A DNA stretch of 64,000 nt from Escherichia phage vB_EcoM_Lh1B. Under the pieces are notes generated by a model. The model saw only the letters and a list, made by a program, of their open reading frames with translations, was not told the DNA's origin and ran no database searches. Of the stretch, positions 11,419 to 52,054 are shown piece by piece (the stretch's first letter is position 1; each line of letters starts with the position of its first letter). The stretch lies in sequence record OK428535.1, one strand, 5' to 3'. Position numbers and translations under genes: made by a program.

Positions 11419-11828
11419 TGTTCGATTTACGCACACTGGTCGCTGGGCAAAAAGTTAACATTGTTTACGACACCCCTTTGAAAGGGCAAGAGACGCGTGT
11501 AATTATTCTGGCAACCGGCGTTGGCTACGAGATGGCCAAAAGTTATATGGATGTGATGGCGGAGCAGAAGAATATCTACTCGTCCATCGTTTCCCAGCCA
11601 GAAGATAATGTGAACAAATACACGTATCTGATTTTCAAAGGTGTTGACGGCAAACCAAAAGTCGCTGCCGATGCCTGGATTCGTGATGTTCAGATTATCG
11701 AAAACACGAAGGTGCGCTTCACCGTCACCCTGGATAACAAACAGGAGATTGACGACCTTAAACGCGCCCTGGCTGCCAATGGTTTCAATGACGTCGATTT
11801 TGAAATCGTTGAGAGTATTGCCGGTTAA
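11418..11828 (+). CDS. hypothetical protein
   Basis: TAATG overlap, GAGGAGG upstream. Confidence 0.55.
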   Translation: MFDLRTLVAGQKVNIVYDTPLKGQETRVIILATGVGYEMAKSYMDVMAEQKNIYSSIVSQPEDNVNKYTYLIFKGVDGKPKVAADAWIRDVQIIENTKVRFTVTLDNKQEIDDLKRALAANGFNDVDFEIVESIAG

Positions 11829-11834
11829 AGTAAG

Positions 11835-11871
11835 CCCACACTTCGGAGTGGGTTATTTTTTTTTCTTTTTT
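11835..11871 (+). terminator. rho-independent terminator
   Basis: Hairpin CCCACAC-TTCGG-AGTGGG then TTTTTTTTTCTTTTTT. Confidence 0.7.
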
Positions 11872-11919
11872 CACGTATCCCGCAAGTCTTATAGCTGAGT
11901 AAAAACCAAGGGGCCAGAC

Positions 11920-14211
11920 ATGGACTACAATTCACCATTTCGTCTTAGTCAAGACGAGTATCATCGCGACATTGACGTTATCGATGCGTACTACGAACAA
12001 CTGGCGCTCTACATTCATACCGTCACCAACGGGAAATATTCTTTGGAGTTCTGTCGACAGCAGGTCGAAGAAATGTTCCAACCTGGTGGTGAGTTAGTAC
12101 ACGAATTCCCCGTGTGTAAGATGTGGGTGCGCAATCAAAAGACCGGCGATCGCGAAGAAAAATACACCACGGTAGATAAACTGTTCCGTACAGTGATTGA
12201 TAAGCAGATTATCTCTGCACCGTCGCTGACCTTTTATCTGCCTGAGCACGTCAAGCGCTCTAAGCTTGCTGAATTTACCGCAGAGAACGTGCGTAAGCGT
12301 GCGGTTGTTAAGAAAGAGATGTACGCAGCAGGTGCTGCGGGTAATGAAGTTCTGCGTATTAACAAAAAGAACGAACAGAACGCTGTTAAGACGTTGAACA
12401 ACGGGATGTCGGGTGCATTCTCATCACCGTACACGGTAATCTTTAACCAGTCTTCGCACTCTGTATTGACGTCAACCTGCCGTACGGCTACATCGTTCGG
12501 TAACGCGGGCAACGAACGTCTACTGGGCGGTAATCGTCACTACGACACGCCGTCCCGTGTTATCGACCACTTACTGTCTATTGGTACACTGACTAACTTT
12601 GCGGAGTTCAAGAAGTGTATGGAACTCTATAACCTCCACTACCCAACAGTGGACGAGGTTATGGAAGTGGTTATGTACTCTGCAGAGTTTTACTTCCGTA
12701 ACGACGAAGGGCTGGAGTTCATTCGTCACTACGTCGGTAATTGTAGCCCGCTGGTACGTGCAGCGTTTGTCTACATGGGTGACTTCTACCACCTGGCGAA
12801 ATACAACGATGAATTCATGCGCGGATTTATCGGTGCGCTGATTGCCGAGGAGATGGAAGACGAGATCACCGATTGGGATGCTGCTGAGCGCTCTATCGAC
12901 GGTGACATGCAGATCATTATCTCGCAGTTCCGTACTGATATCGTGCCGTTAGGTAAGTCGTTCTCTGACGTTAAACTCAAAGACGAAAACACGAACAAAG
13001 CGGAACCGTGGGATAAGCAGGAAAAATACAAAGAGCTGATTCGCTCAGCTGTGTATCTGCAGAAAACCATCGGTAAGTACGCGTGCTTGATTCGTAATAT
13101 CCTGACTACCAAAAACCTGCCGATTAACATTGCCAGGATGCCTGACGTGGTTCGTCGTGTCGGTGTGGTATCTGATACCGACTCCACGATGATGACTGCA
13201 CAGTGGTGGGCACAGTGGTATACCGGTCAACATTACGGTCGTGAAGCTACGCGCGTATCGGATGCGATGATTTATATTGCAACCCAGCACTTACGTCATC
13301 TGATGGCGAGCATGTCGGCGAACATTGGCGTGGCGAAAGAGCGTCTGTTTTTGTACGCAATGAAGAACGAATTTAAGTTCGACTCCTTTGCGTTAACCAC
13401 AAAAGCAAAACACTACTTCTCCATCATCACTGGCCAGGAAGGACAATTGAAGTCCGACCCTGAGTTAGAAGTTAAAGGTGTGTCTTTACGTACGTCGAAC
13501 ATACCGCCTGTGGTCATGAAAGAGTTCAAACGCACGATTAAAGAACTCTGTGAGATTGTAGCGCGCGGCGATAAGATTAAGATTCTGCCTCTGCTGGAAA
13601 AGGTTGCTGCAATTGAGCACGTTGTGGTGGACTCTATTCGTGCTGGTAAAGCAGGCTACCTGAAAACAACCAACGTCAAAGACCGTAGTGCGTACTCTGA
13701 AGATGATGAAAAGAGCTACCACTACCACCGCATGTACAACGCCATCTTTGGACCGAAGTACGGCTACCTGGACGAACCGCCTTATGACGCCGTGAAACTT
13801 CCGGTAAACCTGGAGAACAAAACAGCCGTTAAAGAGTGGCTGGAAAACATTAAAGACCCGATGATTAAGACCACTGCAACACGGTGGTTCGAAGAGAACA
13901 ACTATCGCACCTATCGTACTCTGATACTGCCAGAGTTCTTGGTGGAAAACTTCGGTATTCCTCCGGAGCTGATTGATGCTGCAGACACACGTCGAAGCGC
14001 ATTCTCCACAGTAGAACCTTACTATCACATCCTGGAATGTCTGGGTGTGTTCATGATGGACAAGAATAGAACTCGTCTGCTTTCGGATTACTACGGCGAG
14101 TCCGTAGACTCCGTCAAGGAAGAATTAGGTAGCGGCGAGTACGTTAAGAAATCTGAACGTGATGGAGAGGAAGAAGATGGGGAAGAAGATGGGGAAGAAG
14201 CGGAGGAGTAA
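11920..14211 (+). CDS. large protein; candidate polymerase-domain half of a split family-B DNA polymerase (tentative)
   Basis: 763-aa ORF; SDTDS (nt 13171..13185, motif C-like), motif B-like helix ~45 aa upstream (KELIRSAVYLQKTIG), KAKHY (KKRY-like) ~75 aa downstream; acidic C-terminal tail. Confidence 0.55.
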   Translation: MDYNSPFRLSQDEYHRDIDVIDAYYEQLALYIHTVTNGKYSLEFCRQQVEEMFQPGGELVHEFPVCKMWVRNQKTGDREEKYTTVDKLFRTVIDKQIISAPSLTFYLPEHVKRSKLAEFTAENVRKRAVVKKEMYAAGAAGNEVLRINKKNEQNAVKTLNNGMSGAFSSPYTVIFNQSSHSVLTSTCRTATSFGNAGNERLLGGNRHYDTPSRVIDHLLSIGTLTNFAEFKKCMELYNLHYPTVDEVMEVVMYSAEFYFRNDEGLEFIRHYVGNCSPLVRAAFVYMGDFYHLAKYNDEFMRGFIGALIAEEMEDEITDWDAAERSIDGDMQIIISQFRTDIVPLGKSFSDVKLKDENTNKAEPWDKQEKYKELIRSAVYLQKTIGKYACLIRNILTTKNLPINIARMPDVVRRVGVVSDTDSTMMTAQWWAQWYTGQHYGREATRVSDAMIYIATQHLRHLMASMSANIGVAKERLFLYAMKNEFKFDSFALTTKAKHYFSIITGQEGQLKSDPELEVKGVSLRTSNIPPVVMKEFKRTIKELCEIVARGDKIKILPLLEKVAAIEHVVVDSIRAGKAGYLKTTNVKDRSAYSEDDEKSYHYHRMYNAIFGPKYGYLDEPPYDAVKLPVNLENKTAVKEWLENIKDPMIKTTATRWFEENNYRTYRTLILPEFLVENFGIPPELIDAADTRRSAFSTVEPYYHILECLGVFMMDKNRTRLLSDYYGESVDSVKEELGSGEYVKKSERDGEEEDGEEDGEEAEE

Positions 14212-38491: not shown

Positions 38492-40454
38492 GATCCAAGA
38501 TCAGCGTCCGGGTAATGCCCGTCNCCCTAATCCCGATCAGCCAGCCCCTGTGGCGGCTGCTACCCAACAAGAGATGATTCTTCCGACCGTGCCTGATGAC
38601 GCGAATCCGGATGCAATCATCATGNCTATTAAACANNNNNACCCCNATTTTNNTTTTGCCCGTGCAGAAGAAGTTTATCACCAACATTATCATCAGCCGG
38701 AGCCTAAGCTCGAGCGTCCGACGTTTGTAGAAGAAGCTTTGCCCGAACCTGCTGCACCGGTACAGCCTGTATCCCAGACCTTCTCTGAACAGGTGCATGA
38801 GCATATTCATCACACCCCAGAACCGGNGGNAGAGAAANCGCCNGNGGNANAACCNNCNCCCCNNCNAAAAACNCCGGNNGGGGGNGNCCCNNNNAACCCG
38901 GGGNNAAAAAAAAAGNAAAACNCNNCNCCNAAGGTTCCGGAANAANAACAGGNCCNNGNGANTNACTTNGGTAANACCCATTTAGCTGAAACCGCCGAAA
39001 TGGGTGAAGATGAAGCTGATCGTATCCTGACACAGTCGAAGATGTTGATTGGTCTGAAACAAGACCCTAACATCATTGCAGACTCTCTGCAAAAGTTCCT
39101 CGGTAACATTAAACGTTCACCGAAAGACGGTCGGCTGCTGTTCGAAAGCCCTGAACAACAACAGGTTTACGACGACATCTATCGTGCTTTGAACATGACA
39201 CCGCCACGTCTACAGGACGGCGTACCGGCATTCGCTGGTGCACTGGACCGTGGTGACACCGCTTGGGAACAGCGTGTGATGTTGCCGGACGGTAAGGCAT
39301 CTGGTGCTATTGCACCGCGTGACAATATGCACACTGGCGCGCTGGCTGCTTTGCGTCGTGTACGTAAGTCGGGTATTCCGAACATGGTTTGGCTGCCGGC
39401 CACAGGTATCTACGTGNGCTTCCNCGCACCACATGAACGCGACCTTTGTGACTTCGACATGCGTCTAACACTGGAAACTGCGACCATCGGTATGCAGACC
39501 TACGGATTGATGCTGTCGTCGTCTTCTGGCGTGTACATGCGTCACATGGTTGAATTCGCACTTCAGTTTGTTACCGAAGCAACCATCGATTGTGCAGGTA
39601 ACGATCTGCGTACGGTGCTGTTGGATACCATTGATCTGGCTGACTACTGGCTGGTTATTCTGGGTCCGTTGCAGGCGAAGTGGCCGTCTGGTATTCCATG
39701 GACGCTGATGTGTGGCGAAGACGGTTGCACTCAGCAGGAAGATGTGAAGCTGAATATCGCACGTTGTATCCGTTTTGGTTCCGGTCTGTTTAGCGACCTG
39801 CAGAAANAACNGTGGGNACGTCAGCGCGGTACTGAGCGTCCAGTGATTTCTATTGCTGAACAGCGCGAATATATCGCGGCGCATCAGGTTGACCCATCCT
39901 CGGTATTTGAATACCACGACGTGCGTGTTGAATTTGGCCGTTCTACCCTGGGTAGCTTCTTTGACTCCACCGAGAAGTGGATTGAAGACGTTAACGCGTC
40001 AACTACGGCAGCGCTGTCTGAATTTGCTACCGAGCGTGAACGTGAATCCCATATGCGTTTAACTGCGGAAGCCCGTCGCTTAACGCGCTACGCTCACATG
40101 GTGAAATCTATCACTGTTAATGAGCAACGTGAAGTAAACGGTGAAATGCAGGTTATCCCACAAACTGAAACCGACACAGCGAAAATCGTTGAGATGCTGG
40201 AAGAGCTGTCTTCCGACCGTATCTACGTTGGTCAGTTTGAAAACGCGATTGCTGAATACAACGAACGTACACGTTTAGCGGTATTCGGTTACATGGGTAA
40301 ACGCTGCCCGGCGTGCGGTAAAACACACGGCGAGAAAGACGGTCTGTATCGCGGTATTGTTACCATCTCACCGGACAGGGTTTTTTTCGTGCTCTCTCGA
40401 GTGGTGTCCGAGATTCAGAAATTCTTGCTGGATCAATACGCCGATATTGGCTAG
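38484..40454 (+). CDS. hypothetical protein; Pro/Glu/Lys-rich low-complexity N-region, C-terminal CPACG zinc-ribbon-like motif
   Basis: 656-aa ORF; frame through 38521..38990 is provisional because of many N calls. Confidence 0.45.
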   Translation: MSEIQDQRPGNARXPNPDQPAPVAAATQQEMILPTVPDDANPDAIIMXIKXXXPXFXFARAEEVYHQHYHQPEPKLERPTFVEEALPEPAAPVQPVSQTFSEQVHEHIHHTPEPXXEKXXXXXXXPXXKXPXGXXXXNPGXKKKXNXXXKVPEXXQXXXXXXGXTHLAETAEMGEDEADRILTQSKMLIGLKQDPNIIADSLQKFLGNIKRSPKDGRLLFESPEQQQVYDDIYRALNMTPPRLQDGVPAFAGALDRGDTAWEQRVMLPDGKASGAIAPRDNMHTGALAALRRVRKSGIPNMVWLPATGIYVXFXAPHERDLCDFDMRLTLETATIGMQTYGLMLSSSSGVYMRHMVEFALQFVTEATIDCAGNDLRTVLLDTIDLADYWLVILGPLQAKWPSGIPWTLMCGEDGCTQQEDVKLNIARCIRFGSGLFSDLQKXXWXRQRGTERPVISIAEQREYIAAHQVDPSSVFEYHDVRVEFGRSTLGSFFDSTEKWIEDVNASTTAALSEFATERERESHMRLTAEARRLTRYAHMVKSITVNEQREVNGEMQVIPQTETDTAKIVEMLEELSSDRIYVGQFENAIAEYNERTRLAVFGYMGKRCPACGKTHGEKDGLYRGIVTISPDRVFFVLSRVVSEIQKFLLDQYADIG

Positions 40455-40498
40455 ACCAGGAAGACGTTCCGTCCGAGCAAATCATTACAACGCTCAAG

Positions 40499-40870
40499 AT
40501 GGATACCACCTCTCTCTTCAAGCAGCGTAGCACACGTCCTATTACGTATCAGGAAGCCCATAACGAGCTTCTGGAAGCGTATGACCGTACACTGGCTCTT
40601 AATACCGGCGACCATCAGGTAGGGTTGTCAGATTTTGAAAACCCGGTATACGGTAGTCTTTACGATATCTGGTACGCCACTTACTTACGTGAAGAGGTCG
40701 GTGAAAACTACCGGATGTCGATAGACGAGTTCCTCGACCGTCCCCNCTGGCAGATACTNCTNATGCNCGACAATGCCCGTCGCCCCAATGNGTTTTTCCC
40801 CAAANCCGGGGAATACGCGGCGGGTAAACGCGGGCAAAAGGAGCCGGATAAATATATGACGGGATATTAA
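40499..40870 (+). CDS. hypothetical protein
   Basis: 123-aa ORF, weak ribosome-binding site, contains N calls. Confidence 0.3.
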   Translation: MDTTSLFKQRSTRPITYQEAHNELLEAYDRTLALNTGDHQVGLSDFENPVYGSLYDIWYATYLREEVGENYRMSIDEFLDRPXWQIXXMXDNARRPNXFFPKXGEYAAGKRGQKEPDKYMTGY

Positions 40871-40879
40871 AANAAATTN

Positions 40880-40908
40880 GGGGNTTCGGCCCCGTTTTCT
40901 TTTTTTTA
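40880..40908 (+). terminator. rho-independent terminator
   Basis: Hairpin GGGGnTTCGGCCCC then T-run (contains N). Confidence 0.55.
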
Positions 40909-40950
40909 TTCGCCTTGGTATGAATGCCCTTTTCACTATGGAACAGAGCC

Positions 40951-41808
40951 ATGATTGATATTTATACCGACTATGCGGCTGTATTGACAGTCAACCGTCA
41001 CGAAGGTCGTGCAGCACCGATGCTAGATTTAGTGACGCTCGGTATGGATTACGGTTACGATGTGGCGTTATCCGATGTTTATAGCAACCCGTTGTCTGAC
41101 CCTGCGGACGAAACTGTTCGTCTGGAATCCATTATCGTGAAGGTAGCGGTTGGGTTAGGCAACCGCCTCGGTATCGGACTTAATCCACAAATCGTCTTCC
41201 AGAAACCGAAAGAAACCGTACGTATCCTTCACGGTGTGTTGGAAGCCTTCGAAGAGTTCGAAGACAGTGATGCCCTTTACGGGATTGTCTCCTCTGGTGA
41301 GACACCAGAGTATATCCTGGAGAACATGTGTCGTTATGTTTACGGTGACGAAAACCTGCACTTCGAAGACCTGATTACTGTTGTCAGCCCACGCGTGCTT
41401 ACCGTGATGGAAAACTTCTTAGCGGCAGAGTCGTTGGAAAGCCAGAAAAGAAATGGCGATGATGAGCGCCAAGAGCGTATCGTCACTTACTTGCGGTTGT
41501 TCCCTGAGAACCCGTCAGCGTTTGTCTTTATGAATCTGCCTGCTGAACCAGACTTAACAGTGGTGCAACAATCGTTAGAATTTCGCGTAGAAGACATTAG
41601 CGAAATTGATTTGCTGACGATGTATGCGGTAGGTTTATCGATTATTCCTCATGCGGAGTTTGACGGGGCTTACGGTGACTTAGAAAAGAACCTTGCCTTG
41701 TTGAACGTCGACAACGTCCCGCCTGGAGAAATCTTGCGGAAAGGATTGGAAGCGTTGAAAGTCATATACGCTAGTGGGGTCGCGGAGGTAGATGATGAAC
41801 AAGATTGA
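40951..41808 (+). CDS. hypothetical acidic protein
   Basis: ORF; start ambiguous between 40924 and 40951. Confidence 0.45.
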   Translation: MIDIYTDYAAVLTVNRHEGRAAPMLDLVTLGMDYGYDVALSDVYSNPLSDPADETVRLESIIVKVAVGLGNRLGIGLNPQIVFQKPKETVRILHGVLEAFEEFEDSDALYGIVSSGETPEYILENMCRYVYGDENLHFEDLITVVSPRVLTVMENFLAAESLESQKRNGDDERQERIVTYLRLFPENPSAFVFMNLPAEPDLTVVQQSLEFRVEDISEIDLLTMYAVGLSIIPHAEFDGAYGDLEKNLALLNVDNVPPGEILRKGLEALKVIYASGVAEVDDEQD

Positions 41809-43090
41809 TTATCTGGTTGCTGCGTGTAAAGCAGAAGCTTGGCGTAGACTGGTGTGGCGTATTGCGGTTTTCAACGTGGCCATCTTTAATGAAAAAGGTG
41901 AGCCACCTGAGCAATACGACCTGAACTACATTGACGGCTTACCCCACTACTGGGAAAACGAAGAAACCAAGTGGGTGCCGATTGAAGGGTGCAAAAAAGA
42001 TGAAGAGCTGTTCGTGCCGGAAGAGCAGTTTGAATTGCGTCCTGAGATGTACCCAGGTTTAGCTGGTCCCATTCCAACTACTGTGGGTCGCTATGTCTTT
42101 AACTGGATTGCTATCTACTATGCTTTCGGTACCCGTCTCCCGTATCTGGCAGAGTCTCGTGACCCGCTAGCCTACCGTAAAGAGATGTATGAGCGTTGTG
42201 TGGAATATGATGACACCGATCCAGACAACGAAGACGCGATTCGACCGTACATGATAGGACGCTTTGTAGGGGGTCTGCACGAGCTTGCTCCGTTGTGTCG
42301 TGGGATTGCCCCAACAGGAACTATTAGAAGCCTTACAACGCATCCTGACGCGTATAAGGTACGAGATGCGTTGCTGTTGAAGCACAAAGACGAACTGGAT
42401 AACCCTGCGGTTATCGTTATGATTGAAAAAGCTCTCGACGAACTTGATAAAGAGTGGTTGAGTGGCGACCAGTCCGTTGAGTTCTACAGCTCTCCTAAAG
42501 CGCGTATGCGTCGCCGTAAGCTGATGCTGATGTACGGTATTCAGACCGCTTTTAAAGAAGGTGCAGATTTTACCTTAATCCCAACGAGCCTGATGGAAGT
42601 TGATCAGACCGGGATGAAGTATCTGGTAGAGAAATTCAATGATACGCGAGAAGGTTCCTTCATGCGTGGTGCAGAAACTGCCAAGGGCGGGGAGCAAGTA
42701 CGTATCATCCAGATGATTTTCCAGAACCACAAAATCGTGCCTGGGGATTGCGGGACAAAACTGACACATGCACTTGTAATTAACCAGTATAACTACAAGC
42801 GTTATGTTGGCATGAACGCGATGATTAACGGTAAAGTTACCCAACTTACTGAAGAGTATTTGAAAACGCAATTTGGTAAAGTTGTTCGACTCCGCCGACC
42901 CATCTTATGTCAGCAAGGTCACGTAGACTGTTGNGCGGCGTGCGCCTCTGCACACAAAGCAGAAGAGCCACGGGCAATCGCTGCGGATATCTCTTCCGGC
43001 TTCTCGAACGTTATGACCACTGCAATGGGTGCGATGCACGGTCGCGAAACCGTGGTTAAAGAGTACATCCCTAAATTCCACATCACCTAA
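41792..43090 (+). CDS. hypothetical protein
   Basis: 432-aa ORF, GGAGG upstream. Confidence 0.5.
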   Translation: MMNKIDYLVAACKAEAWRRLVWRIAVFNVAIFNEKGEPPEQYDLNYIDGLPHYWENEETKWVPIEGCKKDEELFVPEEQFELRPEMYPGLAGPIPTTVGRYVFNWIAIYYAFGTRLPYLAESRDPLAYRKEMYERCVEYDDTDPDNEDAIRPYMIGRFVGGLHELAPLCRGIAPTGTIRSLTTHPDAYKVRDALLLKHKDELDNPAVIVMIEKALDELDKEWLSGDQSVEFYSSPKARMRRRKLMLMYGIQTAFKEGADFTLIPTSLMEVDQTGMKYLVEKFNDTREGSFMRGAETAKGGEQVRIIQMIFQNHKIVPGDCGTKLTHALVINQYNYKRYVGMNAMINGKVTQLTEEYLKTQFGKVVRLRRPILCQQGHVDCXAACASAHKAEEPRAIAADISSGFSNVMTTAMGAMHGRETVVKEYIPKFHIT

Positions 43091-43103
43091 GGATTGTTTC
43101 CTC

Positions 43104-43604
43104 ATGACTAAGAAAGACACTACTACCCTTGACCCGCGTACAGAAGGCGTGGTCCGTGATAGCGCTTCTTACAGCAACGACGACCAATATCATGTTAAAC
43201 TGATCACCACAATGCTTGATGAAGCAGGTAACAATGCCGGCCCACGTAAAGCATCTGGTACCCAGGCTGAGAAAGATGCGTATAATAAGCTGCATCACTC
43301 TTTCCGTGAGCTGTTTAAACTGCGCGGTCAGGCCTTCCTGGACGGTTTCTACGCCTTTGTAGAAGCGGCTAATAAGCACCGTAACGGTATTTTCTACGCA
43401 CCGGCTGCTAATAACCGTATCAGTGAGAACTTCCCGAATCGTGACGAGCGTGAAGTCTTCGTTATCTTTATTAACATGCTGATTCGTTACGCACGTTGCG
43501 CCGATAAAGGCCGTTTCCGTGATACCAACGATGTTGACCGTCTGGCTCGTCGCCTGAACGACCCGGACCTGCGTTCGCTGGTTATGCACGCCTTTGGCGG
43601 TTAA
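43104..43604 (+). CDS. hypothetical protein, probably highly expressed
   Basis: ATG at 43104 after TAAGGA; CGT/CTG-rich optimal codons; followed by strong terminator. Confidence 0.55.
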   Translation: MTKKDTTTLDPRTEGVVRDSASYSNDDQYHVKLITTMLDEAGNNAGPRKASGTQAEKDAYNKLHHSFRELFKLRGQAFLDGFYAFVEAANKHRNGIFYAPAANNRISENFPNRDEREVFVIFINMLIRYARCADKGRFRDTNDVDRLARRLNDPDLRSLVMHAFGG

Positions 43605-43607
43605 ATA

Positions 43608-43652
43608 AAAGTACCTCTCTACCCTAGGGTAGAGAGGCCTTTCTTTTTTTGT
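43608..43652. terminator. bidirectional terminator between convergent genes
   Basis: Hairpin CCTCTCTACCC-TA-GGGTAGAGAGG with A-run before and T-run after. Confidence 0.7.
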
Positions 43653-43653
43653 T

Positions 43654-45438
43654 TTAGAACCCGCAGATGTACTCCATAGGCTCTGTCACTACTTCCCCTT
43701 GCTTACGTAAGAACGTAGACAGGACAGTGTCTTTGTCCGGTAAGCAGAAGAAGTCTGTCGCTATTTCCATGGCATTAACTCGCCCAGCAGTTAAGTTGAC
43801 GCCCGTGCGACGTCGAATCTCTTCACTAACCCCATTGATGGACAGTAGTTCGATGAGTGTGGTCTCACGAGATTGGTTCATCATGTTTGTGGCCGAAGGG
43901 TAGGCCTGGGTTAAGTCCGCATCCGCAGTTTGTCCACGGAACGCAGAGTAATATTCGTCAATCTCCTCCAGAATGTTATTCAGACCGTTCTCAGCATTCA
44001 TACATGCTGTCAGGGTAACAATCCAACCGTCTGTACCGATAACCTCTTCATCGTAATCGTTACGCATTGCAGACCCTACGGAACCGATGACGTATCCTTT
44101 GTCATACAGATAATAGGTAAAGGCCACGCAGATACGTTTTGGTAGCGACGGGAAGATATCGTACATCGAGAAACCTGCCAGAATGGATATTGCCGAAGAC
44201 AAGTCGTTCGTTTTCTTATCCAACAACACGATTAACAAGTTATCCATCATGTTGTATACGGCATATTCGGCAGGGTAGTCCCGTTGTGCTTTTATGTGCC
44301 ATTGCAGGTTATCTTCATACGGCAGTCCAGGAATGTCGAGTTTGTGTAAACCGAGTTCGGTGTACAGTATGGCAGATAACTTGTACGAAGGACGTTGCCC
44401 TTCGTGGACACGCAACGAACGGAATAACACCATGGCATCCACACAGTAGAAAGACGCAGTACAGTAGAGTACGTGCCACTGTTGTGACGGTGCTTTGGTG
44501 AGTGACTTGGATTCCGTCTTTTTGTTCGCCTGGTCTTCTTTAAACCACAGACGACGGTATTTCTCCGGCACATCCGGATGGTTAAAGACGCCCAGTGGAT
44601 CGATACCTTCTTTCTGCAAGGTTTCCAACATGCGTGAAATATCGAACTGGTGGTTCCATGCGACCAGCAAATCAGGAAGACGCGGATGAATCTCTTCGAA
44701 CATCCTGACGATGCACTGCCCTGCCGTAGCGCAGGTATAGGTGAAGATTTTATAACCNCTGATAATGTCTTTGGTCTTTGTCNCCTTTTCGCCGGTCTTT
44801 TTGTCTTTNTCNTCGNATTCGNTTTTGNTTAAGAGTTCCTGCGCTTTTTTGANAATGACTTCTTCCGCGTTTTTACCGATGCGGTCCATGTAGTTCTTAG
44901 CACCAAAGAAATGGATTTCGTCGTCTAAGATAAATGACACGATCCACGGTTCCTTCGTGCCGTCCATTTCGTTGGTCTCCACGTCGTATACGCAAAGACG
45001 GTTAGGGCTGATGTTGTTCGGCCAGCGCTTTAAATATTTCTGTTTAATCCAGCTGGTAATCGGTAAGTCGGCCCAATAAACGTACGGGCTAGTACAGACA
45101 CGACGCAGGTTCTTTTTCGGGTCAGGGAAACGTGCACCTAAACCCATCTGCAACGTCTTCGCCATCTGCGCATCAGTAGTCCAGAGTTCTTGACATTTTC
45201 CTTTTTCTTCGAACTCTTTTTTCTCCTGGTGGTTACGATATTCTTCACGGGTAACGTACACCGGACGCTTTAAATTCTCACGCATTACCAAGCGCGGGAT
45301 AAGCCTGCCATCCTTAGTATGGATGACCTCTTTGATGAGGACAAAGTCATTTTCTTTTTCTTCGTCCGTCGCATAAGCGACGTGTTTGCACTCTTTAGCG
45401 ATGACATCCTCGGGTGCGTAATAGGTATTGATTTCCAT
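43654..45438 (-). CDS. family-B DNA polymerase, N-terminal fragment (3'-5' exonuclease domain plus motif A)
   Basis: Exo I YDVETN, Exo II WNHQFD, Exo III YNMMD with typical spacing; motif A DLTQAYPS (cf. T4/RB69 DLTSLYPS); ORF ends ~85 aa after motif A; some N calls. Confidence 0.65.
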   Translation of the reverse strand: MEINTYYAPEDVIAKECKHVAYATDEEKENDFVLIKEVIHTKDGRLIPRLVMRENLKRPVYVTREEYRNHQEKKEFEEKGKCQELWTTDAQMAKTLQMGLGARFPDPKKNLRRVCTSPYVYWADLPITSWIKQKYLKRWPNNISPNRLCVYDVETNEMDGTKEPWIVSFILDDEIHFFGAKNYMDRIGKNAEEVIXKKAQELLXKXEXXXKDKKTGEKXTKTKDIIXGYKIFTYTCATAGQCIVRMFEEIHPRLPDLLVAWNHQFDISRMLETLQKEGIDPLGVFNHPDVPEKYRRLWFKEDQANKKTESKSLTKAPSQQWHVLYCTASFYCVDAMVLFRSLRVHEGQRPSYKLSAILYTELGLHKLDIPGLPYEDNLQWHIKAQRDYPAEYAVYNMMDNLLIVLLDKKTNDLSSAISILAGFSMYDIFPSLPKRICVAFTYYLYDKGYVIGSVGSAMRNDYDEEVIGTDGWIVTLTACMNAENGLNNILEEIDEYYSAFRGQTADADLTQAYPSATNMMNQSRETTLIELLSINGVSEEIRRRTGVNLTAGRVNAMEIATDFFCLPDKDTVLSTFLRKQGEVVTEPMEYICGF

Positions 45439-45508
45439 GGTCTACTCTCAAATATGGTGTCTGCTATACTGATTTGTGGGTAACGTATTTTCTAAAAGGA
45501 ACGTCTAA

Positions 45509-46861
45509 ATGGGACACNGGNAAAANNANANAANCCCNTTGGCNNNCGNNAAANCCGNGGCCNCNGAANCCNNNGNNTTCNAAAAAAAAAAAAAANNCCC
45601 CTNTTTGGNGGNAGNGGNANGNANGTTNCGTGNTGCGGGNGACTTCTCGCCAGNGGGTTATCAGAGTTCTGGTATTGCTGCCTGGGTCTTTGACAACAAC
45701 GGTATTACAGTCCTGCCTCGTAACGGGTCCGACTTAGGTGTGGCGGACGTTGTGTTTGCGGGTGTGGAGCCGCCGAAGCTCGATGCGAACAACCCAATCA
45801 TCGCCGACCTGCAACGCAAGATGGTGCAGGGTAACACCGACCTGGATGTCTACAGTAAGTTCTTAAAAGAGAACGAACTGAACGGCGAGTTCGACGATAA
45901 AAATGCGAAGCTTTCAGGCGAACTCAGCAAGGTGCCGTCCCCACTTTGGCTGACCCCGAAACTACTGACCAGTATCGACTTAACGGATTTAGAAGTCGCG
46001 GCGATTATTCTACATGAAGTCGGCCACGTCTATTACTATTTCCGTACCTTGATGCGTACGGTGGTAACGAACCTGATTGCGGATGCTGCAGCGAACCGCA
46101 TGATGCAAACCGAAGACCCGACAGTGCGTTTGAAAGTCGTAAAAGACGTTGAACGTATGCTGAACACCAAAGTGAATCAGCCGGAAACTATCTGCAAAGA
46201 GATGTCTAAAGAGAACATCTACATGCATCTGGTGACGGACATTCTGCTTGAGCGTCCATTTGTTACCGGTTCGGAAGGGTTCGCTAACCGTACCTGGGAA
46301 CGTGCTGCAGATGACTTCGCAGCTCGCTTTGGTGCAGCCCCGTACCTGGCGTCAGCCCTGTACAAAATCGAAACGTCCCAATTCTATCTCTGCCGGAACG
46401 CGTCGTACATGAACTACGGTGTGCATCTGATGCTGGAAATGCTTAACGTTTCGCTGCTGATTGTGGCTTCGACTAATCCAGTTGGCCTGTTCTTCACGAC
46501 TATCTCGGTGGCGTTCGGTCTGATTGTGAACGACCCACGCAACACCATCTACGATCCGCCGCAGGAACGTTTTGAGACGATGCGTCGTAACTTAGTGGAA
46601 GAGCTGAACACCTTAAAAGGTAGCACCACGAAAGAAGCGAACGAACATCGTAAACGTATTCTGCAGGGCATTGCGTCTATCGACGAATTACTGAAAACCG
46701 TGAAAGACAAAGACAACGTCTTTAGCTTCATCATGAAAACGCTGACCCCTGGCGGTCGCCGTGAGCGCGCTGGTGTGGATTATCAGCGTACGATGGAGCG
46801 NTATCTTTCTAATGACCTGCGTGTGGCTTCATCAAAGCTAAGCCGGGCTACCGTTTCTTAA
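45509..46861 (+). CDS. M48-like (HtpX/Ste24-type) zinc metalloprotease candidate with C-terminal hydrophobic segments
   Basis: HEVGH ~95 aa before ERAADDFAA (ExxADxxA third-ligand motif); hydrophobic stretch LLIVASTNPVGLFFTTISVAFGLIV; true start uncertain because N calls fill 45518..45653. Confidence 0.5.
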   Translation: MGHXXXXXXXLXXXKXXAXEXXXFXKKKKXPXLXXXXXXXRXAXDFSPXGYQSSGIAAWVFDNNGITVLPRNGSDLGVADVVFAGVEPPKLDANNPIIADLQRKMVQGNTDLDVYSKFLKENELNGEFDDKNAKLSGELSKVPSPLWLTPKLLTSIDLTDLEVAAIILHEVGHVYYYFRTLMRTVVTNLIADAAANRMMQTEDPTVRLKVVKDVERMLNTKVNQPETICKEMSKENIYMHLVTDILLERPFVTGSEGFANRTWERAADDFAARFGAAPYLASALYKIETSQFYLCRNASYMNYGVHLMLEMLNVSLLIVASTNPVGLFFTTISVAFGLIVNDPRNTIYDPPQERFETMRRNLVEELNTLKGSTTKEANEHRKRILQGIASIDELLKTVKDKDNVFSFIMKTLTPGGRRERAGVDYQRTMEXYLSNDLRVASSKLSRATVS

Positions 46862-46876
46862 GTAAGGGTACTTAAC

Positions 46877-47320
46877 ATGACGCATAAAGTTTCTTTAAAT
46901 AACCTGGTACTGGATTTCAAACGTACCAACGAAGGGAAAGGTGTACACGCCCAGCGTGCTTTGACCGGTCTGGTTGCTTTCTCACTGGCGTATAACGCGG
47001 TATTGGCTGACAATGGCCAATATGGCGCTGCAGAGGCCGCTGGGACGTTTTTACGTCCGGTAATGCGTAATATCGTCTCTGACGTTAACGAGCTGTACTG
47101 TGTTGATTTAGGCGTGATTGAGGACATGACCGTGGGTCTGTACTGCAATCGTTACTGCAACGTGTATGGCGGCGCTAAAGCTCTGGAAAGTTTCTCAGTT
47201 CGTGAGATTTTCAACCAGGCACTCGGGGAAGATATCTGGGAAACCGTCGGTCTGTGGATTAGCCGCTTTATGGAAGTGGTTGGTTTCTACATGGCAGAAC
47301 TGAAAGGGCAGATTTCATGA
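46877..47320 (+). CDS. hypothetical protein
   Basis: 147-aa ORF, AAGGG upstream. Confidence 0.5.
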   Translation: MTHKVSLNNLVLDFKRTNEGKGVHAQRALTGLVAFSLAYNAVLADNGQYGAAEAAGTFLRPVMRNIVSDVNELYCVDLGVIEDMTVGLYCNRYCNVYGGAKALESFSVREIFNQALGEDIWETVGLWISRFMEVVGFYMAELKGQIS

Positions 47321-49050
47321 GCATGGAAATGACAGGTAACGCCACCCACCCCAAATGGCGTTTGGGGGAGATCGGTGAAGTCCTGCGTTCACGTATGGCC
47401 GAGCGTATTGATTCTGNCANCCANCTCAATCTGTACATGCAACGCAACGAAGCCGACTTAATCTACGGCTCTCGACTGATTCTGCAAATAGACGCGATTC
47501 TTGATGAGGTGCGACGCGCTGGCCTATCGAAAGATGTCGCTGTCGCTGTTGAATCTTCCCGCCCAGGCACAATTCCCGAAGCTGTCCGCAAAATCCTGAC
47601 CTCTAACTATACCCGCACGCACCAGAAAGAGACTATTGTTGCGCTCGAGTCCTGGGCAAATGCAGGTAAAGTGGGATTGGTTGTGTTAATCATGACCGCG
47701 ATTATCAAAATCATCGGTTGGATTATCAGCAACGGTAACGGGTTTGCTGGTAATGGCGAATTCGACGGCGAAGGTTACGCTGAGAAAGTCGGCGAAAAAG
47801 CAGAGAGTTTCTCCCAGACCGAAAACACTATCATCGGTCAGCTGAAAATCAGCGCAGTGAAAGATGCATACATCGAAGCCTCTAAGGGTCTGAAAGGTCG
47901 TGACCTGGAAAACCTGAACTTGGCTATCGCGATGGCCGACGAAGTGTTTACGAACATGAACGCGGAAGAGTATCTGAACGACTTGAGCAGCGCGCTGGGC
48001 CGTTCGCCGTTCACTGAATTGTTCAAAGGTTACACTAAGAAACGCCAATCGAGCCAGCAGGTTATTCACGACCTGTTAGATACCCTGTTACAACACAACG
48101 TAACTTACGGTATCTATCCGATTGAGGTGGGTAAGAAAGCCTGGCAGGCATTGCCGAAGTCTGCACGTGAAGCCGGTGTACGTATTCCGAACCTGTTGAA
48201 CTTCCAACAGATGTCGAATGTTGCCAGCGAACTTATCGGCTACTTTGGCTCCCTCCAAAGTGCCTTTAAAGCAATGATCGACCCAAGCGTTGCCGAGGGT
48301 TTTAAGAATCAGCAAGGTTCAACCACTACCCATAACGGTAAGCAGGTCAATAAAGCAGCACACGACACCGCGCTTATCTTCGGCCAGGCGTTAGCGCAGC
48401 TGAACACCACGATGAACTTCATCATCAGCGACGTTTCCCGCAAAGGATTCGAATACGCTACTGCACCTTTGGTCGTTATCCCAGAAAACAAAGTTCGCGG
48501 TTTAGTGGGTCATGACGATGGTGTGGACTTCGTGCCTGGTAAGGTATTGGTTAATGCACAAGCATCGGCGTTCTTGGGACGTGAATGCTTAGAGCAAATG
48601 CGCCAAGCGGGCACGTTATCGGTTGGCGACGAACGTGAGCTGCTGGCCGTGGTAGTAACGCTAGGTAAACAAGGTTTTACTAACGACACCGCCGCGACTA
48701 ACCTGAACCGTTACAGTGCACTGGATAAGGCGGTTAATAACACGATTAAAGTGTTGGAGCAGTTCCAGAAAGCAACCAAGGATAACGCTGAATACGTTAA
48801 CCTGATTAGCGAAGTCATTATGAACGAGCTTAATCAACCTTCTGGTCTGCGCACCGACGGTCGTGAACTCTCGATGGTGTTATTCTCCCCAGACGGTGAT
48901 GAAGACCTCTTCGTCGGCTTGCGTCGTAACCTGTCGTTGGTGCGTCGTTGTTGCGGTGCTGCCGCTACACTGCAGACGATACTGAACCTGGCCAAACGTA
49001 ACCCGTTGGTGAAAGGCAATAATCGCAAAAACATGCTTGACGGCGAATAA
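47317..49050 (+). CDS. hypothetical protein with one predicted transmembrane helix
   Basis: 577-aa ORF, ATGA overlap; hydrophobic segment KVGLVVLIMTAIIKIIGWIIS. Confidence 0.55.
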   Translation: MSMEMTGNATHPKWRLGEIGEVLRSRMAERIDSXXXLNLYMQRNEADLIYGSRLILQIDAILDEVRRAGLSKDVAVAVESSRPGTIPEAVRKILTSNYTRTHQKETIVALESWANAGKVGLVVLIMTAIIKIIGWIISNGNGFAGNGEFDGEGYAEKVGEKAESFSQTENTIIGQLKISAVKDAYIEASKGLKGRDLENLNLAIAMADEVFTNMNAEEYLNDLSSALGRSPFTELFKGYTKKRQSSQQVIHDLLDTLLQHNVTYGIYPIEVGKKAWQALPKSAREAGVRIPNLLNFQQMSNVASELIGYFGSLQSAFKAMIDPSVAEGFKNQQGSTTTHNGKQVNKAAHDTALIFGQALAQLNTTMNFIISDVSRKGFEYATAPLVVIPENKVRGLVGHDDGVDFVPGKVLVNAQASAFLGRECLEQMRQAGTLSVGDERELLAVVVTLGKQGFTNDTAATNLNRYSALDKAVNNTIKVLEQFQKATKDNAEYVNLISEVIMNELNQPSGLRTDGRELSMVLFSPDGDEDLFVGLRRNLSLVRRCCGAAATLQTILNLAKRNPLVKGNNRKNMLDGE

Positions 49051-49052
49051 AA

Positions 49053-49098
49053 TAAAAGGCTACCCTCTCCTTCGGGAGAGGGTAGTGCTTTTTTTATT
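49053..49098. terminator. bidirectional terminator between convergent operons
   Basis: Hairpin CTACCCTCTCC-TTCG-GGAGAGGGTAG with A-run before and T-run after. Confidence 0.7.
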
Positions 49099-52054
49099 CT
49101 TTTTCGGTATCGTGACGGTTGTACGACAGTACGATGTCATCTTTCAAACCGATGTCGCCGTTGGCTTCAATATCGAGTTTCTTACCAATTGTAGCTCGCG
49201 CTGCTTCGGTAATGACAGTGAACAGTCGCAGGTCTTTATCTGGCCCCATGTCGTCGAGTTCAACACCGATAATGGCATCGTTAAGCGTATTGCGTAACGC
49301 ATTACCGATCTCGGTTGCTGAAACGGTCAGATGTGTTGACAGATAGTCGTTAATGACTTGCGAAGTCCGTTTCCGGATTTGTGCCAGAAGCTCGCTGTTT
49401 GCTCGGTTCGCTGCCGTGAGGTAATATTTGACAGTGAACTGGTTTTCAGCAGGCAACGGTGACACAACTCCGTCTTCGGTACGTACATCGATATAACCCA
49501 TCGTGGTAATAGGAACAAAGAAGCCTTCAGTTTGCTCCAACAGCAGCGGTTTCAGATTCGGTAGTACCACCGTAACGTAGTTGATGATATTGTCAATCAC
49601 GCTATCAAGGTACGCTTTAACCGCTTTCGAGGTTGCGAACTTATAACGGGCATCGAAGACAGCCATTTCACTACGGAACTTAATACTGCGCGGCTTCGCA
49701 ATAATAGGCTGACCGTTCCCGTCGAAGATTTGTTCCCCAACGTGGTGTGCGATTTCTTGCTCACCGGTGGCCGGGTCTATTTTCGGATCGCCTTTGCGAT
49801 GCAGGTACGTGATTTGCAACGGTGGAACAGCATCAGGGTCGTACGTGTACTCAGGTGTTACGCCATCGTCTTTGGTTTTAATAACATCCTTTTCCCAATA
49901 CGCCAGAACGTCCTCCTGGTAGTATTCGTAGTTGATGCTGTCCGTTACTGCACGTGCTTTTCGCCNGTAATAGGACATGGCTTTACCCAGCTCGATTTTG
50001 AAAATCTCATGAGTAATCCCAATACCATCACGCGCAGGTGGTACAATCATTGTATCCATTTCAGCACGTTCGTAATTACCGGGGTAGTAACCCGTACAGC
50101 CGTAGAACACGTTATACTCGGTTAACAACGGTGCAGGTGTGTCCACATCCACTTCGGTGGTGATTCGGGTGTTGTTGATAATCAGCTCATCGTTACGGTC
50201 AACGTCGAGATTGGTTTTCAACAAGAATTCCCATACACGCTCCGAACCTTGACGACCCACTAAGGTGCCGTTGATGTACNCCAACTTACCGTNNGNGTTA
50301 CGCGGCGAGAAGGAAATCTGCGCAAAGACTTGGTCATCACTTAACGCCTGGTATGGCGGTTCTGATTTAGTCACAGTGCGCAGGATATAACCTTCGGCCG
50401 TTTTCTCAATCTGATAATCTGCAGTGACAACACTCAGCTCCGTTGTCACGTTGGTGCTAACGAAACGTTTTGAGTTCAACTGCGGTTTATCGAGTTGGTA
50501 AATACGAACATCGCAAGATTTGTTGTTAATGTCCACCACGTAATGGAACGGCGTGAACAGGTAACGGTTAGTGTTACCCGCGTTAACCAAATCTTCTTTA
50601 CGCATGGTCTTCGCAAGGATGGTCATCTCCGCATCGATTTGTAGACTGGTATCCGTAAAGCGATACAGCGTATCTGGCTCAATTGTCAAACGGTTGCCGT
50701 TAATACGGACCGTCGGCAGTTTCACCAGTTCATCCCAGCTAAAGTACAGCGGGGCGGTGATGGTCCCGATAGGGGAACTCACTTTAGATAACGTGGATTC
50801 CGGCATCGGCGCGGTCAGGAAGTAAGTACGCCCAGTTACGTAATCGTTCGGCTTAGACAAGGTCAGGCCGTAATCCGATACCGTGGCTTCTAACTGTTTC
50901 TCTGTTACTGGCAGTTTGCGAATCCCCACTGCATTGTTTACCANACGGTCACGCAACTCATCAAACGAAAGTTGTGTACGGCCCCCGGTGGCGTAACTGC
51001 CTTCTTCCGCAACCAGCATTTTGATGGAGAATGATTTCAACGGGTTGATGTATCCCGCATCGTATTCACCGTTCAAGTCTCGCAATGAGAAGGTGTACTC
51101 GTCCGCCGGGAATGCAGAAACGTCGAGGTCGAGTGGCCCGATGGTCGTATATACGTCCATGCGGATTTCACCACTTACCAGGTTCTTCGCCATGTAGATA
51201 GACGGTATCGTACAACGAATGGACTGGTTAACGACTTGAATCAGCGCCGTAGGCGTGTTTGGATCGTAAACGTCACGACTGTGCGTGTGGTGGATTTCTG
51301 TCCAGGTGTTTGAATTGGACGGTTTATTCCACACCCGTGCGTAGAAGAACTTGTTGGTGAACGTGCGCGTCATCACAAACGTGTTCTGCCCCAACAACGT
51401 ATCGTTCTCGTCCTTTACACTGTACTGCATCACCGGAATACGGATAGCCAGTATCTGCGACGGTGTGCTAGGAACACTTGTCAACTCCCAGTCCAACGCG
51501 TTAGTGGTTACGGGCGATATCGGTGACTGAGTTTCGGTAATCCACAAGACCTGGAAGGCTGGATTATCAACGGTACCATACGGCAGCACTCGAATTTCGA
51601 TAGGATACTGGATGGCAAAGTTGTAACCTGAAACAGTAAAGACGGTATCCCGTGGAATCACGACTTTACGAATACCTGCCACGTTTAACGGCATCGCCTT
51701 CGCTAATAGAGAGTCGACATCTAGAAGCAGCAGTAAGGTCGCTTGTGATGGCTGGGCAAAAACATCGACATAATCCACGTCAGACATGTGGCGGAACAGA
51801 TCGTCGTGAGTTTGTGCCATAGAGGGGAACATTTTCGGAATGGTGTCCCGATCGCCCTGGATAATAGTGTGGCCCATCGTAATTCCGACCTCGGTCATGT
51901 AGACCACCGGGTCGGTCGGGTCACGTAGCAGAATTTGCCCGTCGGCGTCCTGCACGTCTTGGAGCTGGTTCAGCATTAATGACTGCATTGCCGATGGGTT
52001 ATGTGCCATCAGCAGCAAGTCTTTCGATAATGCGTCGTACGTTTTCGTAGTCAT
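49094..52054 (-). CDS. large hypothetical protein (possibly structural)
   Basis: 986-aa minus-strand ORF, 1-nt TAATG coupling with upstream ORF. Confidence 0.6.
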   Translation of the reverse strand: MTTKTYDALSKDLLLMAHNPSAMQSLMLNQLQDVQDADGQILLRDPTDPVVYMTEVGITMGHTIIQGDRDTIPKMFPSMAQTHDDLFRHMSDVDYVDVFAQPSQATLLLLLDVDSLLAKAMPLNVAGIRKVVIPRDTVFTVSGYNFAIQYPIEIRVLPYGTVDNPAFQVLWITETQSPISPVTTNALDWELTSVPSTPSQILAIRIPVMQYSVKDENDTLLGQNTFVMTRTFTNKFFYARVWNKPSNSNTWTEIHHTHSRDVYDPNTPTALIQVVNQSIRCTIPSIYMAKNLVSGEIRMDVYTTIGPLDLDVSAFPADEYTFSLRDLNGEYDAGYINPLKSFSIKMLVAEEGSYATGGRTQLSFDELRDRXVNNAVGIRKLPVTEKQLEATVSDYGLTLSKPNDYVTGRTYFLTAPMPESTLSKVSSPIGTITAPLYFSWDELVKLPTVRINGNRLTIEPDTLYRFTDTSLQIDAEMTILAKTMRKEDLVNAGNTNRYLFTPFHYVVDINNKSCDVRIYQLDKPQLNSKRFVSTNVTTELSVVTADYQIEKTAEGYILRTVTKSEPPYQALSDDQVFAQISFSPRNXXGKLXYINGTLVGRQGSERVWEFLLKTNLDVDRNDELIINNTRITTEVDVDTPAPLLTEYNVFYGCTGYYPGNYERAEMDTMIVPPARDGIGITHEIFKIELGKAMSYYXRKARAVTDSINYEYYQEDVLAYWEKDVIKTKDDGVTPEYTYDPDAVPPLQITYLHRKGDPKIDPATGEQEIAHHVGEQIFDGNGQPIIAKPRSIKFRSEMAVFDARYKFATSKAVKAYLDSVIDNIINYVTVVLPNLKPLLLEQTEGFFVPITTMGYIDVRTEDGVVSPLPAENQFTVKYYLTAANRANSELLAQIRKRTSQVINDYLSTHLTVSATEIGNALRNTLNDAIIGVELDDMGPDKDLRLFTVITEAARATIGKKLDIEANGDIGLKDDIVLSYNRHDTEKE

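Follow-up and report, generated by a model that had tools for sequence, protein, structure and literature searches.

A split family-B DNA polymerase in the SPN3US-like phage vB_EcoM_Lh1B, with motif A apparently on the exonuclease-bearing chain

Introduction

Family-B DNA polymerases (PolBs) that are split between two genes were discovered computationally in phiKZ-like phages by Kazlauskas and Venclovas in 2011 and described as an exonuclease and a polymerase on separate chains (PMC3201878). A 2016 paper on SPN3US genetics used the term 'split subunit DNA polymerase' for the enzyme of phiKZ-related phages (PMC5105663). Here, we analyzed an open reading frame (ORF) on the minus strand of Escherichia phage vB_EcoM_Lh1B (Lh1B), located at positions 43654-45438 of a 64,000-nucleotide stretch of DNA (sequence record OK428535.1; the whole stretch is referred to as the window). 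With high confidence, this ORF of 594 aa plus stop encodes the N-terminal subunit (N subunit) of the two-polypeptide PolB replicase of chimalliviruses, an enzyme found in all nucleus-forming jumbo phages of the phiKZ/SPN3US type, the active site of which would be composite. The split itself is already known, both from the literature since 2011 and from the annotation of the gene as 'DNA polymerase' in SPN3US-like genomes, and the precedent among jumbo phages that an earlier note on this DNA had mentioned turned out to be the phiKZ-like family itself (PMC3201878, PMC5105663).

For phiKZ, the abstract of a bioRxiv preprint (1 October 2026, PMC13648687) treats the phage as a nucleus-forming chimallivirus and reports that its two chains, DNAP-N and DNAP-C, form a stable 1:1 core complex, the structure of which was obtained by cryo-electron microscopy (cryo-EM) at 2.1 Å and is homologous to B-family polymerases. 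It also presents a third phiKZ protein, Rhc, which combines an RNase H with a clamp-like domain and boosts activity.

Several other PolBs are also divided between genes. In T4-related phages of Aeromonas and Acinetobacter (Petrov et al. 2006, 2010), gp43A and gp43B are two polypeptides that co-purify and are active (PMC3061061, PMC2988022). Their split lies in the fingertip, between the finger helices, and the distance between the cistrons ranges from 2 bp to 3 kb, with some pairs separated by a homing endonuclease. The naturally split PolB of Methanothermobacter thermautotrophicus (Kelman et al. 1999) is encoded by genes 85 kb apart (PMC3061061) and is broken later in the palm, ~83 aa beyond the Pfu fingertip. 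In phage RM378, whose genes are probably distant as well, the chain is divided ahead of motif A, at the boundary of the N-terminal and palm domains. For the PolB of phage MIJ3, a split intein has been proposed, and its halves flank an HNH endonuclease gene (PMC6892783).

Identification of the N subunit as a fragment of a family-B polymerase

The ORF at 43654-45438 is a PolB fragment that comprises the N-terminal domain, the exonuclease domain and motif A. Neither a Pfam scan of the N subunit (nothing at E ≤ 1) nor a single-sequence phmmer search against the PDB (only a chance match to granzyme M, E 2.7) gave a direct match, so a family profile or a predicted fold was needed to recognize the PolB homology. 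Among the PHROGs, the protein matches phrog_3011 'DNA polymerase' over its full length (E 1e-250). For the profile, an alignment of 41 diverse homologs from a collection of 5.8 billion proteins was used. When compared with the PDB, it retrieved RB69 gp43 as the top match (E 1.3e-6) in three collinear stretches: profile positions 129-260 align to RB69 92-231 (Exo I and Exo II), 319-437 to 271-380 (Exo III), and 487-513 to 405-431 (motif A plus the following N.S.ET). The predicted fold leads to the same protein. The AlphaFold2 model of the N subunit has a mean predicted local distance difference test (pLDDT) score of 83.9 and is confident for residues 1-460, and its top Foldseek match in the PDB is again RB69 gp43 (E 7e-13, probability 1.0, ~470 aligned columns). 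Sequence identity of the two polymerase halves to RB69 gp43 is 10-16%, and the Foldseek template modeling scores against it are modest (0.49 for the N half and 0.23 for the C half described below), because each model accounts for no more than one half of gp43 and the domains are oriented differently.

The motifs themselves are highly conserved (Table 1). Conservation was counted among 246 homologs of the N half and 120 of the C half, with only the ungapped sequences considered at each position. The DxE, NxxxFD and YxxxD signatures of PolB exonucleases are all present in the N subunit and occur in the right order. They are followed by D508-LTQA-Y513-P-S, which agrees with PolB motif A (DxxxLYPS) and its catalytic aspartate and steric-gate tyrosine; D508 was found in 224 of 224 homologs, Y513 and P514 in 220 of 220, and D506, just ahead of the motif, in 229 of 229. 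After motif A, the chain continues for a tail of 79 aa without motif B or C. The earlier note, which had been written from the letters alone, placed Exo I, Exo II, Exo III and motif A in this ORF exactly where they are, and both its expectation of similarity to PolB exonucleases and its statement that motifs B and C are lacking were borne out; its length for the tail (~85 aa) has to be corrected.

The N subunit has no Pfam family of its own, since PF20286 models only the C subunit, and a precomputed PF03104 match was present in just one of the 99 listed homologs of the N fragment (P0089). As a result, domain-based pipelines label the gene 'hypothetical', as is the case in many GenBank records.

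Table 1. Positions of the polymerase genes, their motifs and the adjacent hairpin in the window, with gene positions in related phages
Feature	Position	Strand	Remarks
Gene for N-terminal polymerase subunit, 594 aa	43654-45438	-	Corresponds to phiKZ DNAP-N; contains the PolB N-terminal domain, a 3'-5' exonuclease domain, motif A on the first segment of the palm, and a tail of 79 aa
Exo I YDVETN, aa 151-156 (D152, E154)	44971-44988	-	D and E in 240/240 homologs; aligned to RB69 'FDIEV'
Exo II WNHQFD, aa 261-266 (N262, D266)	44641-44658	-	Of 240 homologs, 234 have D and 6 have E at position 266; aligned to RB69 'WNVESFDIPY'
Exo III YNMMD, aa 395-399 (Y395, D399)	44242-44256	-	Y and D in 240/240; aligned to RB69 'YNIIDV'
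Motif A DLTQAYPS, aa 508-515 (D508, Y513, P514)	43894-43917	-	Invariant among ungapped homologs; collinear with RB69 405-431
Gene for C-terminal polymerase subunit, 763 aa	11920-14211	+	Head of ~97 aa, beta-hairpin, both finger helices, motif B, helical insertion, motif C, KxY, thumb, acidic tail; counterpart of phiKZ DNAP-C
First finger helix (R127, K131)	12292-12312	+	R and K in 116/116 ungapped homologs; Rev3 alignment
Motif B KTLNNGMSG (K157, N160/N161, S164, G165)	12388-12414	+	Invariant in 117/117; aligned to Rev3 'KLLANVTYG'
Motif C SDTDS, S418-S422 (D419, D421)	13171-13185	+	Invariant in 118/118 homologs
KxY motif KAKHY (K497, Y499)	13402-13416	+	Invariant in 118/118 homologs
Terminator-like hairpin	43613-43638	both	11-bp stem, T-rich tails on each strand; between convergent genes, 15 nt past the N-subunit stop
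N/C gene positions in related phages	phiKZ 78.0/40.6 kb; OBP 79/42 kb; Simmy50 230/178 kb		

The C subunit carries the remaining polymerase motifs

PolB motifs B and C (KxxxNSxYG and DTDS), which are missing from the N subunit, are carried by the ORF at 11920-14211, 29 kb away from the N-subunit gene and on the opposite strand. The proposal that the polymerase is split and completed in trans has therefore found its partner gene. This ORF is the counterpart of a second gene annotated as 'DNA polymerase' in SPN3US (11544-13823) and belongs to phrog_2927. Over its full length, it matches PF20286, 'Divergent Family B DNA polymerase' (divDNApol), with E 4e-284, well past the cut-off, and also shows a partial match to PF00136 at aa 94-189.

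Comparison of the C-family profile with the PDB gave no match at E ≤ 0.01, and the sole match at E ≤ 10 was Rev3 of yeast Pol zeta (E 0.011), in which residues 1017-1098 align to profile positions 83-165 and cover the beta-hairpin, both finger helices and motif B. The AlphaFold model of the C subunit (pLDDT 84.1) again had RB69 gp43 as its top Foldseek match (E 2e-5, probability 1.0), and DSSP assigned no beta-strands at motif C in this monomer model. Motif B deviates from canonical PolBs in having S164 at the position of their tyrosine. In addition, motifs B and C are ~254 aa apart, owing to a mostly helical insertion, compared with ~61 aa in RB69 (K560 to D621). Based on the alignments, R127 and K131 on the first finger helix may correspond to R482 and K486 of RB69, which have triphosphate-binding roles (PMC3061061).

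Two further observations concern this chain. An aspartate inside the motif B-C insertion, D288 (GDFYHL, aa 287-292, window positions 12778-12795), is invariant in 120 of 120 homologs; it lies outside any strand and does not look like motif A. The acidic tail (…DGEEEDGEEDGEEAEE) contains one DGEE repeat more than the closest database match, P0100.

Position of the split and the putative composite active site

Because motif A is on the N subunit and both finger helices and motifs B and C are on the C subunit, the split appears to fall in the palm, with motif A and its helix on one side and the beta-hairpin at the entry to the fingers on the other. The matched hairpin can be used to estimate how much additional sequence surrounds this point. 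If yeast Rev3 motif A is at residues 975-982, as we assume from the rev3-L979 alleles, the hairpin starts ~35 residues after motif A in Rev3; the same gap here is made up of the 79 residues of the N tail and ~82-97 residues of the C head. Some 165 junction residues (N tail 527-594 and C head 1-97) would then stand in place of the ~35-residue Rev3 connector, and they probably form an interface that clasps the two halves. The monomer models seem compatible with a palm that is incomplete in each half: in the model of the N subunit, the motif-A region is disordered, with pLDDT below 50 at residues 467-481, 499-533 and 546-556. Taken together, a cut through the palm that leaves motif A on the exonuclease chain and is bridged by a lineage-specific clamp of ~165 residues is likely. 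The cryo-EM structure of the 2026 preprint very probably shows this palm cut already.

In the proposed mechanism, the two subunits would be translated separately and would assemble non-covalently into one enzyme, which would make its active site composite. The N subunit would supply the N-terminal domain, the proofreading exonuclease and the motif-A strand with the catalytic D508 and the steric-gate Y513, and the C subunit would supply the fingers (R127, K131 and motif B), D419 and D421 of motif C, the KxY motif and the thumb. Since motif A is invariant in ~220 homologs of the N fragment, two polypeptides would be expected to contribute to the polymerase active site. By analogy with phiKZ, stable 1:1 assembly and activity would be expected for the Lh1B enzyme too.

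Three points weigh against this interpretation. When taken alone, the motif-A stretch aligns only weakly to RB69 (0.3 bits). Furthermore, the evidence for assembly and activity comes from the phiKZ orthologs and not from the Lh1B enzyme. Finally, the 2011 analysis placed both catalytic aspartates, D229 and D398 in phage EL, on the C fragment, whose EL homolog was described as having all polymerase domains (PMC3201878). The last point would favor a clean separation of the two activities, in which the N chain is a proofreading subunit similar to epsilon/DnaQ and the C chain holds a complete active site, and it is also true that residues 1-460 of the N fragment, the portion modeled with confidence, comprise the N-terminal and exonuclease domains. 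Nevertheless, we regard such a clean separation as very unlikely. We traced the EL numbering through the EL-like phage MIZ-Pa99, the C fragment of which reproduces D229 and D398. While EL D398 is the second aspartate of motif C, D229 was rejected as motif A: it is located behind motif B, an order that does not fit a PolB, and it is not conserved, with N226 at this position in Lh1B and D, N and E in 94, 20 and 4 of the 118 ungapped homologs, respectively. Because of this position and variability, D229 is not a canonical motif A, and none of the acidic residues before motif B is invariant in the C fragment. In contrast, the invariant DxDxxxxYP of the N fragment aligns to RB69 D411-S418 and continues into N.S.ET. 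The assignment of motif A despite its low score on its own is thus based on collinearity, invariance and an extended match in register (DxxxxYPS...N.S.ET), and on these sequence grounds a location on the N fragment is better supported than the 2011 placement on the C fragment.

Given that the split has long been known, what is added here is modest, namely explicit evidence that motif A stays on the same chain as the exonuclease, a correction to the assignment made in 2011. The older description as '3'-5' exonuclease' plus 'polymerase' understates an active site that is apparently shared between the chains. If this is true, the active site is obligatorily heterodimeric, and polymerase activity could be coupled to the stoichiometry of two distant and separately expressed genes. 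The case also serves as a positive control, as both the split and motif A had been placed correctly from the raw sequence alone.

Integrity of the reading frame

We also considered whether the short ORF might be an artefact or a pseudogene. Such an ORF could result from a frameshift, from a break in the assembly or from an unassembled 3' intron or intein, perhaps concealed under ambiguous bases (N). The window does contain 133 such bases, eight of them inside the ORF, and the earlier note had allowed for a continuous polymerase ORF emerging once they are corrected. This is not the case, and we consider the probability of an artefact negligible. The eight bases are isolated, in-frame and located mid-gene (44758-44853, aa ~196-227) rather than at the 3' end; being single, in-frame and mid-gene, they hide no frameshift, and the ORF ends at a real stop. 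The N-free SPN3US genome (NC_027402) has an ORF of the same length and with the same stop at 41224-43008, annotated as 'DNA polymerase', and the two proteins show no amino acid difference outside the masked codons despite 23 nucleotide differences. Moreover, at least 80% of the protein is found in one place in 286 of the 292 phage records with a match to the N half, and the median length of the 246 collected homologs is 575 aa. The stop is followed by a terminator-like hairpin and by a gene at 43029-43604 (+; phrog_7825, function unknown) that is convergent with the N-subunit gene, as had been noted before, and the partner gene is intact in the window. A covalent joining of the halves through protein trans-splicing of a split intein, an explanation put forward for the split PolB of the unrelated jumbo phage MIJ3 and in line with the split-intein PolB genes known from phages (PMC6892783, PMC2677866), is improbable in the extreme, given that no intein, Hint or homing-endonuclease domain was detected in either subunit (Pfam, E ≤ 1) or in the flanking genes, that the junction ends (...MEYICGF in N and MDYNSPF in C) show neither a conserved Cys/Ser N-intein start nor an HN-C/S/T C-intein end, and that the phiKZ enzyme is described as a two-subunit complex in the preprint abstract (PMC13648687).

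Across the window, the ambiguous bases are scattered single bases with a few clusters, at 38524-38975 (50 bases), at 45518-45654 (38 bases) and in 14 smaller groups. The cluster at 45518-45654 corresponds to the 5' end of a virion-protein gene (45509-46861). Reading frames are left unchanged by these bases wherever a comparison with SPN3US is possible.

Comparison with other split and unsplit polymerases

The phiKZ enzyme (DNAP-N/DNAP-C, 'PolBrPhiKZ' clade) shares with that of Lh1B the two-gene architecture, the spacing of the genes by tens of kb and the invariant motifs. The differences are that the Lh1B genes lie on opposite strands, that the hosts are Salmonella and E. coli rather than Pseudomonas, and that the Lh1B enzyme is known from sequence. 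The gp43 proteins of RB69 and T4 share the order of Exo I-III, A, B, C and KxY, and that of RB69 is the top solved-structure match for both halves. However, gp43 is a single chain, whereas in the jumbo phages the enzyme is divided behind motif A, has SG in motif B where gp43 has YG, and has a longer spacing between motifs B and C.

Among the split enzymes, gp43A/gp43B resemble the chimallivirus PolB in that the chain is broken between motifs A and B, but in Lh1B both finger helices are on the C fragment, 29 kb separate the two genes, which lie on opposite strands, and a scan of the flanking genes revealed no mobile element near either polymerase gene. In M. thermautotrophicus, the genes are likewise distant. 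The chimallivirus break point is unlike the T4-like split in the fingertip, the M. thermautotrophicus split in the palm and the RM378 split between the N-terminal and palm domains.

The third component of the phiKZ system was also looked for. A Pfam scan of 10 large genes in the SPN3US region, mostly of unknown function, revealed no RNase H or clamp domain of the Rhc type (the genome is ~240 kb).

Distribution of the two genes in phages

A megablast search with window positions 40000-50000 retrieved SPN3US-like jumbo phages of Salmonella and E. coli, to which these 10 kb align along their whole length with 97-98.5% DNA identity; the match in Escherichia phage vB_EcoM_EC001 has identical coordinates. 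SPN3US is a Seoulvirus, and Lh1B is an SPN3US-like Seoulvirus and thus a chimallivirus. SPN3US and phiKZ have a common core gene set (PMC5105663), and the phiKZ orthologs of the N and C halves show ~33% and ~34% identity, respectively, over 95-97% of the length.

By tblastn, 292 phage records matched the N half and 300 the C half, and the host genera were the same for both. In all eight phages compared by coordinates, the two polymerase genes are located tens of kb apart. A search of 1.84 billion representative sequences with the N-family profile resulted in 1633 hits in all, 624 of them proteins at E < 1e-30, and no fused, unsplit form was present among the best 150 of these 624 (463-894 aa). 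The only long protein among these 150 is the metagenomic P0220 (894 aa), and its additional length is a C-terminal extension of ~330 aa that is acidic, rich in Ala, Glu and Asp and of low complexity, without polymerase motifs or domain.

Two groups of relatives show irregular matches. In phiKZ (AF399011, 78008-79888) and its relatives, the N-half match consists of two BLAST pieces that occupy ~1.88-1.96 kb for 578-593 query residues, which may reflect an insertion specific to this lineage, or a region of strong divergence, within the N gene of phiKZ-like Pseudomonas phages. The Salmonella phages SPFM1, 6, 7, 9, 10, 12, 15 and 20 have annotated homologs of both halves (P0046, P0049, P0051, P0055, P0057, P0058, P0186 and P0216) with HMMER scores of 430-510 bits. 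The top BLASTP alignments of the same homologs cover 3-9% of the query, and tblastn gives only short pieces; these results suggest that several SPFM records contain heavily frameshifted or error-rich sequence.

Split RNA polymerase genes in the neighborhood

Another divided enzyme is encoded nearby. The gene at 41792-43090 (+), two positions downstream of the N-subunit gene, codes for a fragment that matches phrog_2962, 'RNA polymerase beta subunit' (E 6e-173). The window has several such split genes for a multisubunit RNA polymerase, and four more are annotated upstream in SPN3US. Dispersed genes for split enzymes are a general habit of the SPN3US/phiKZ phage group.

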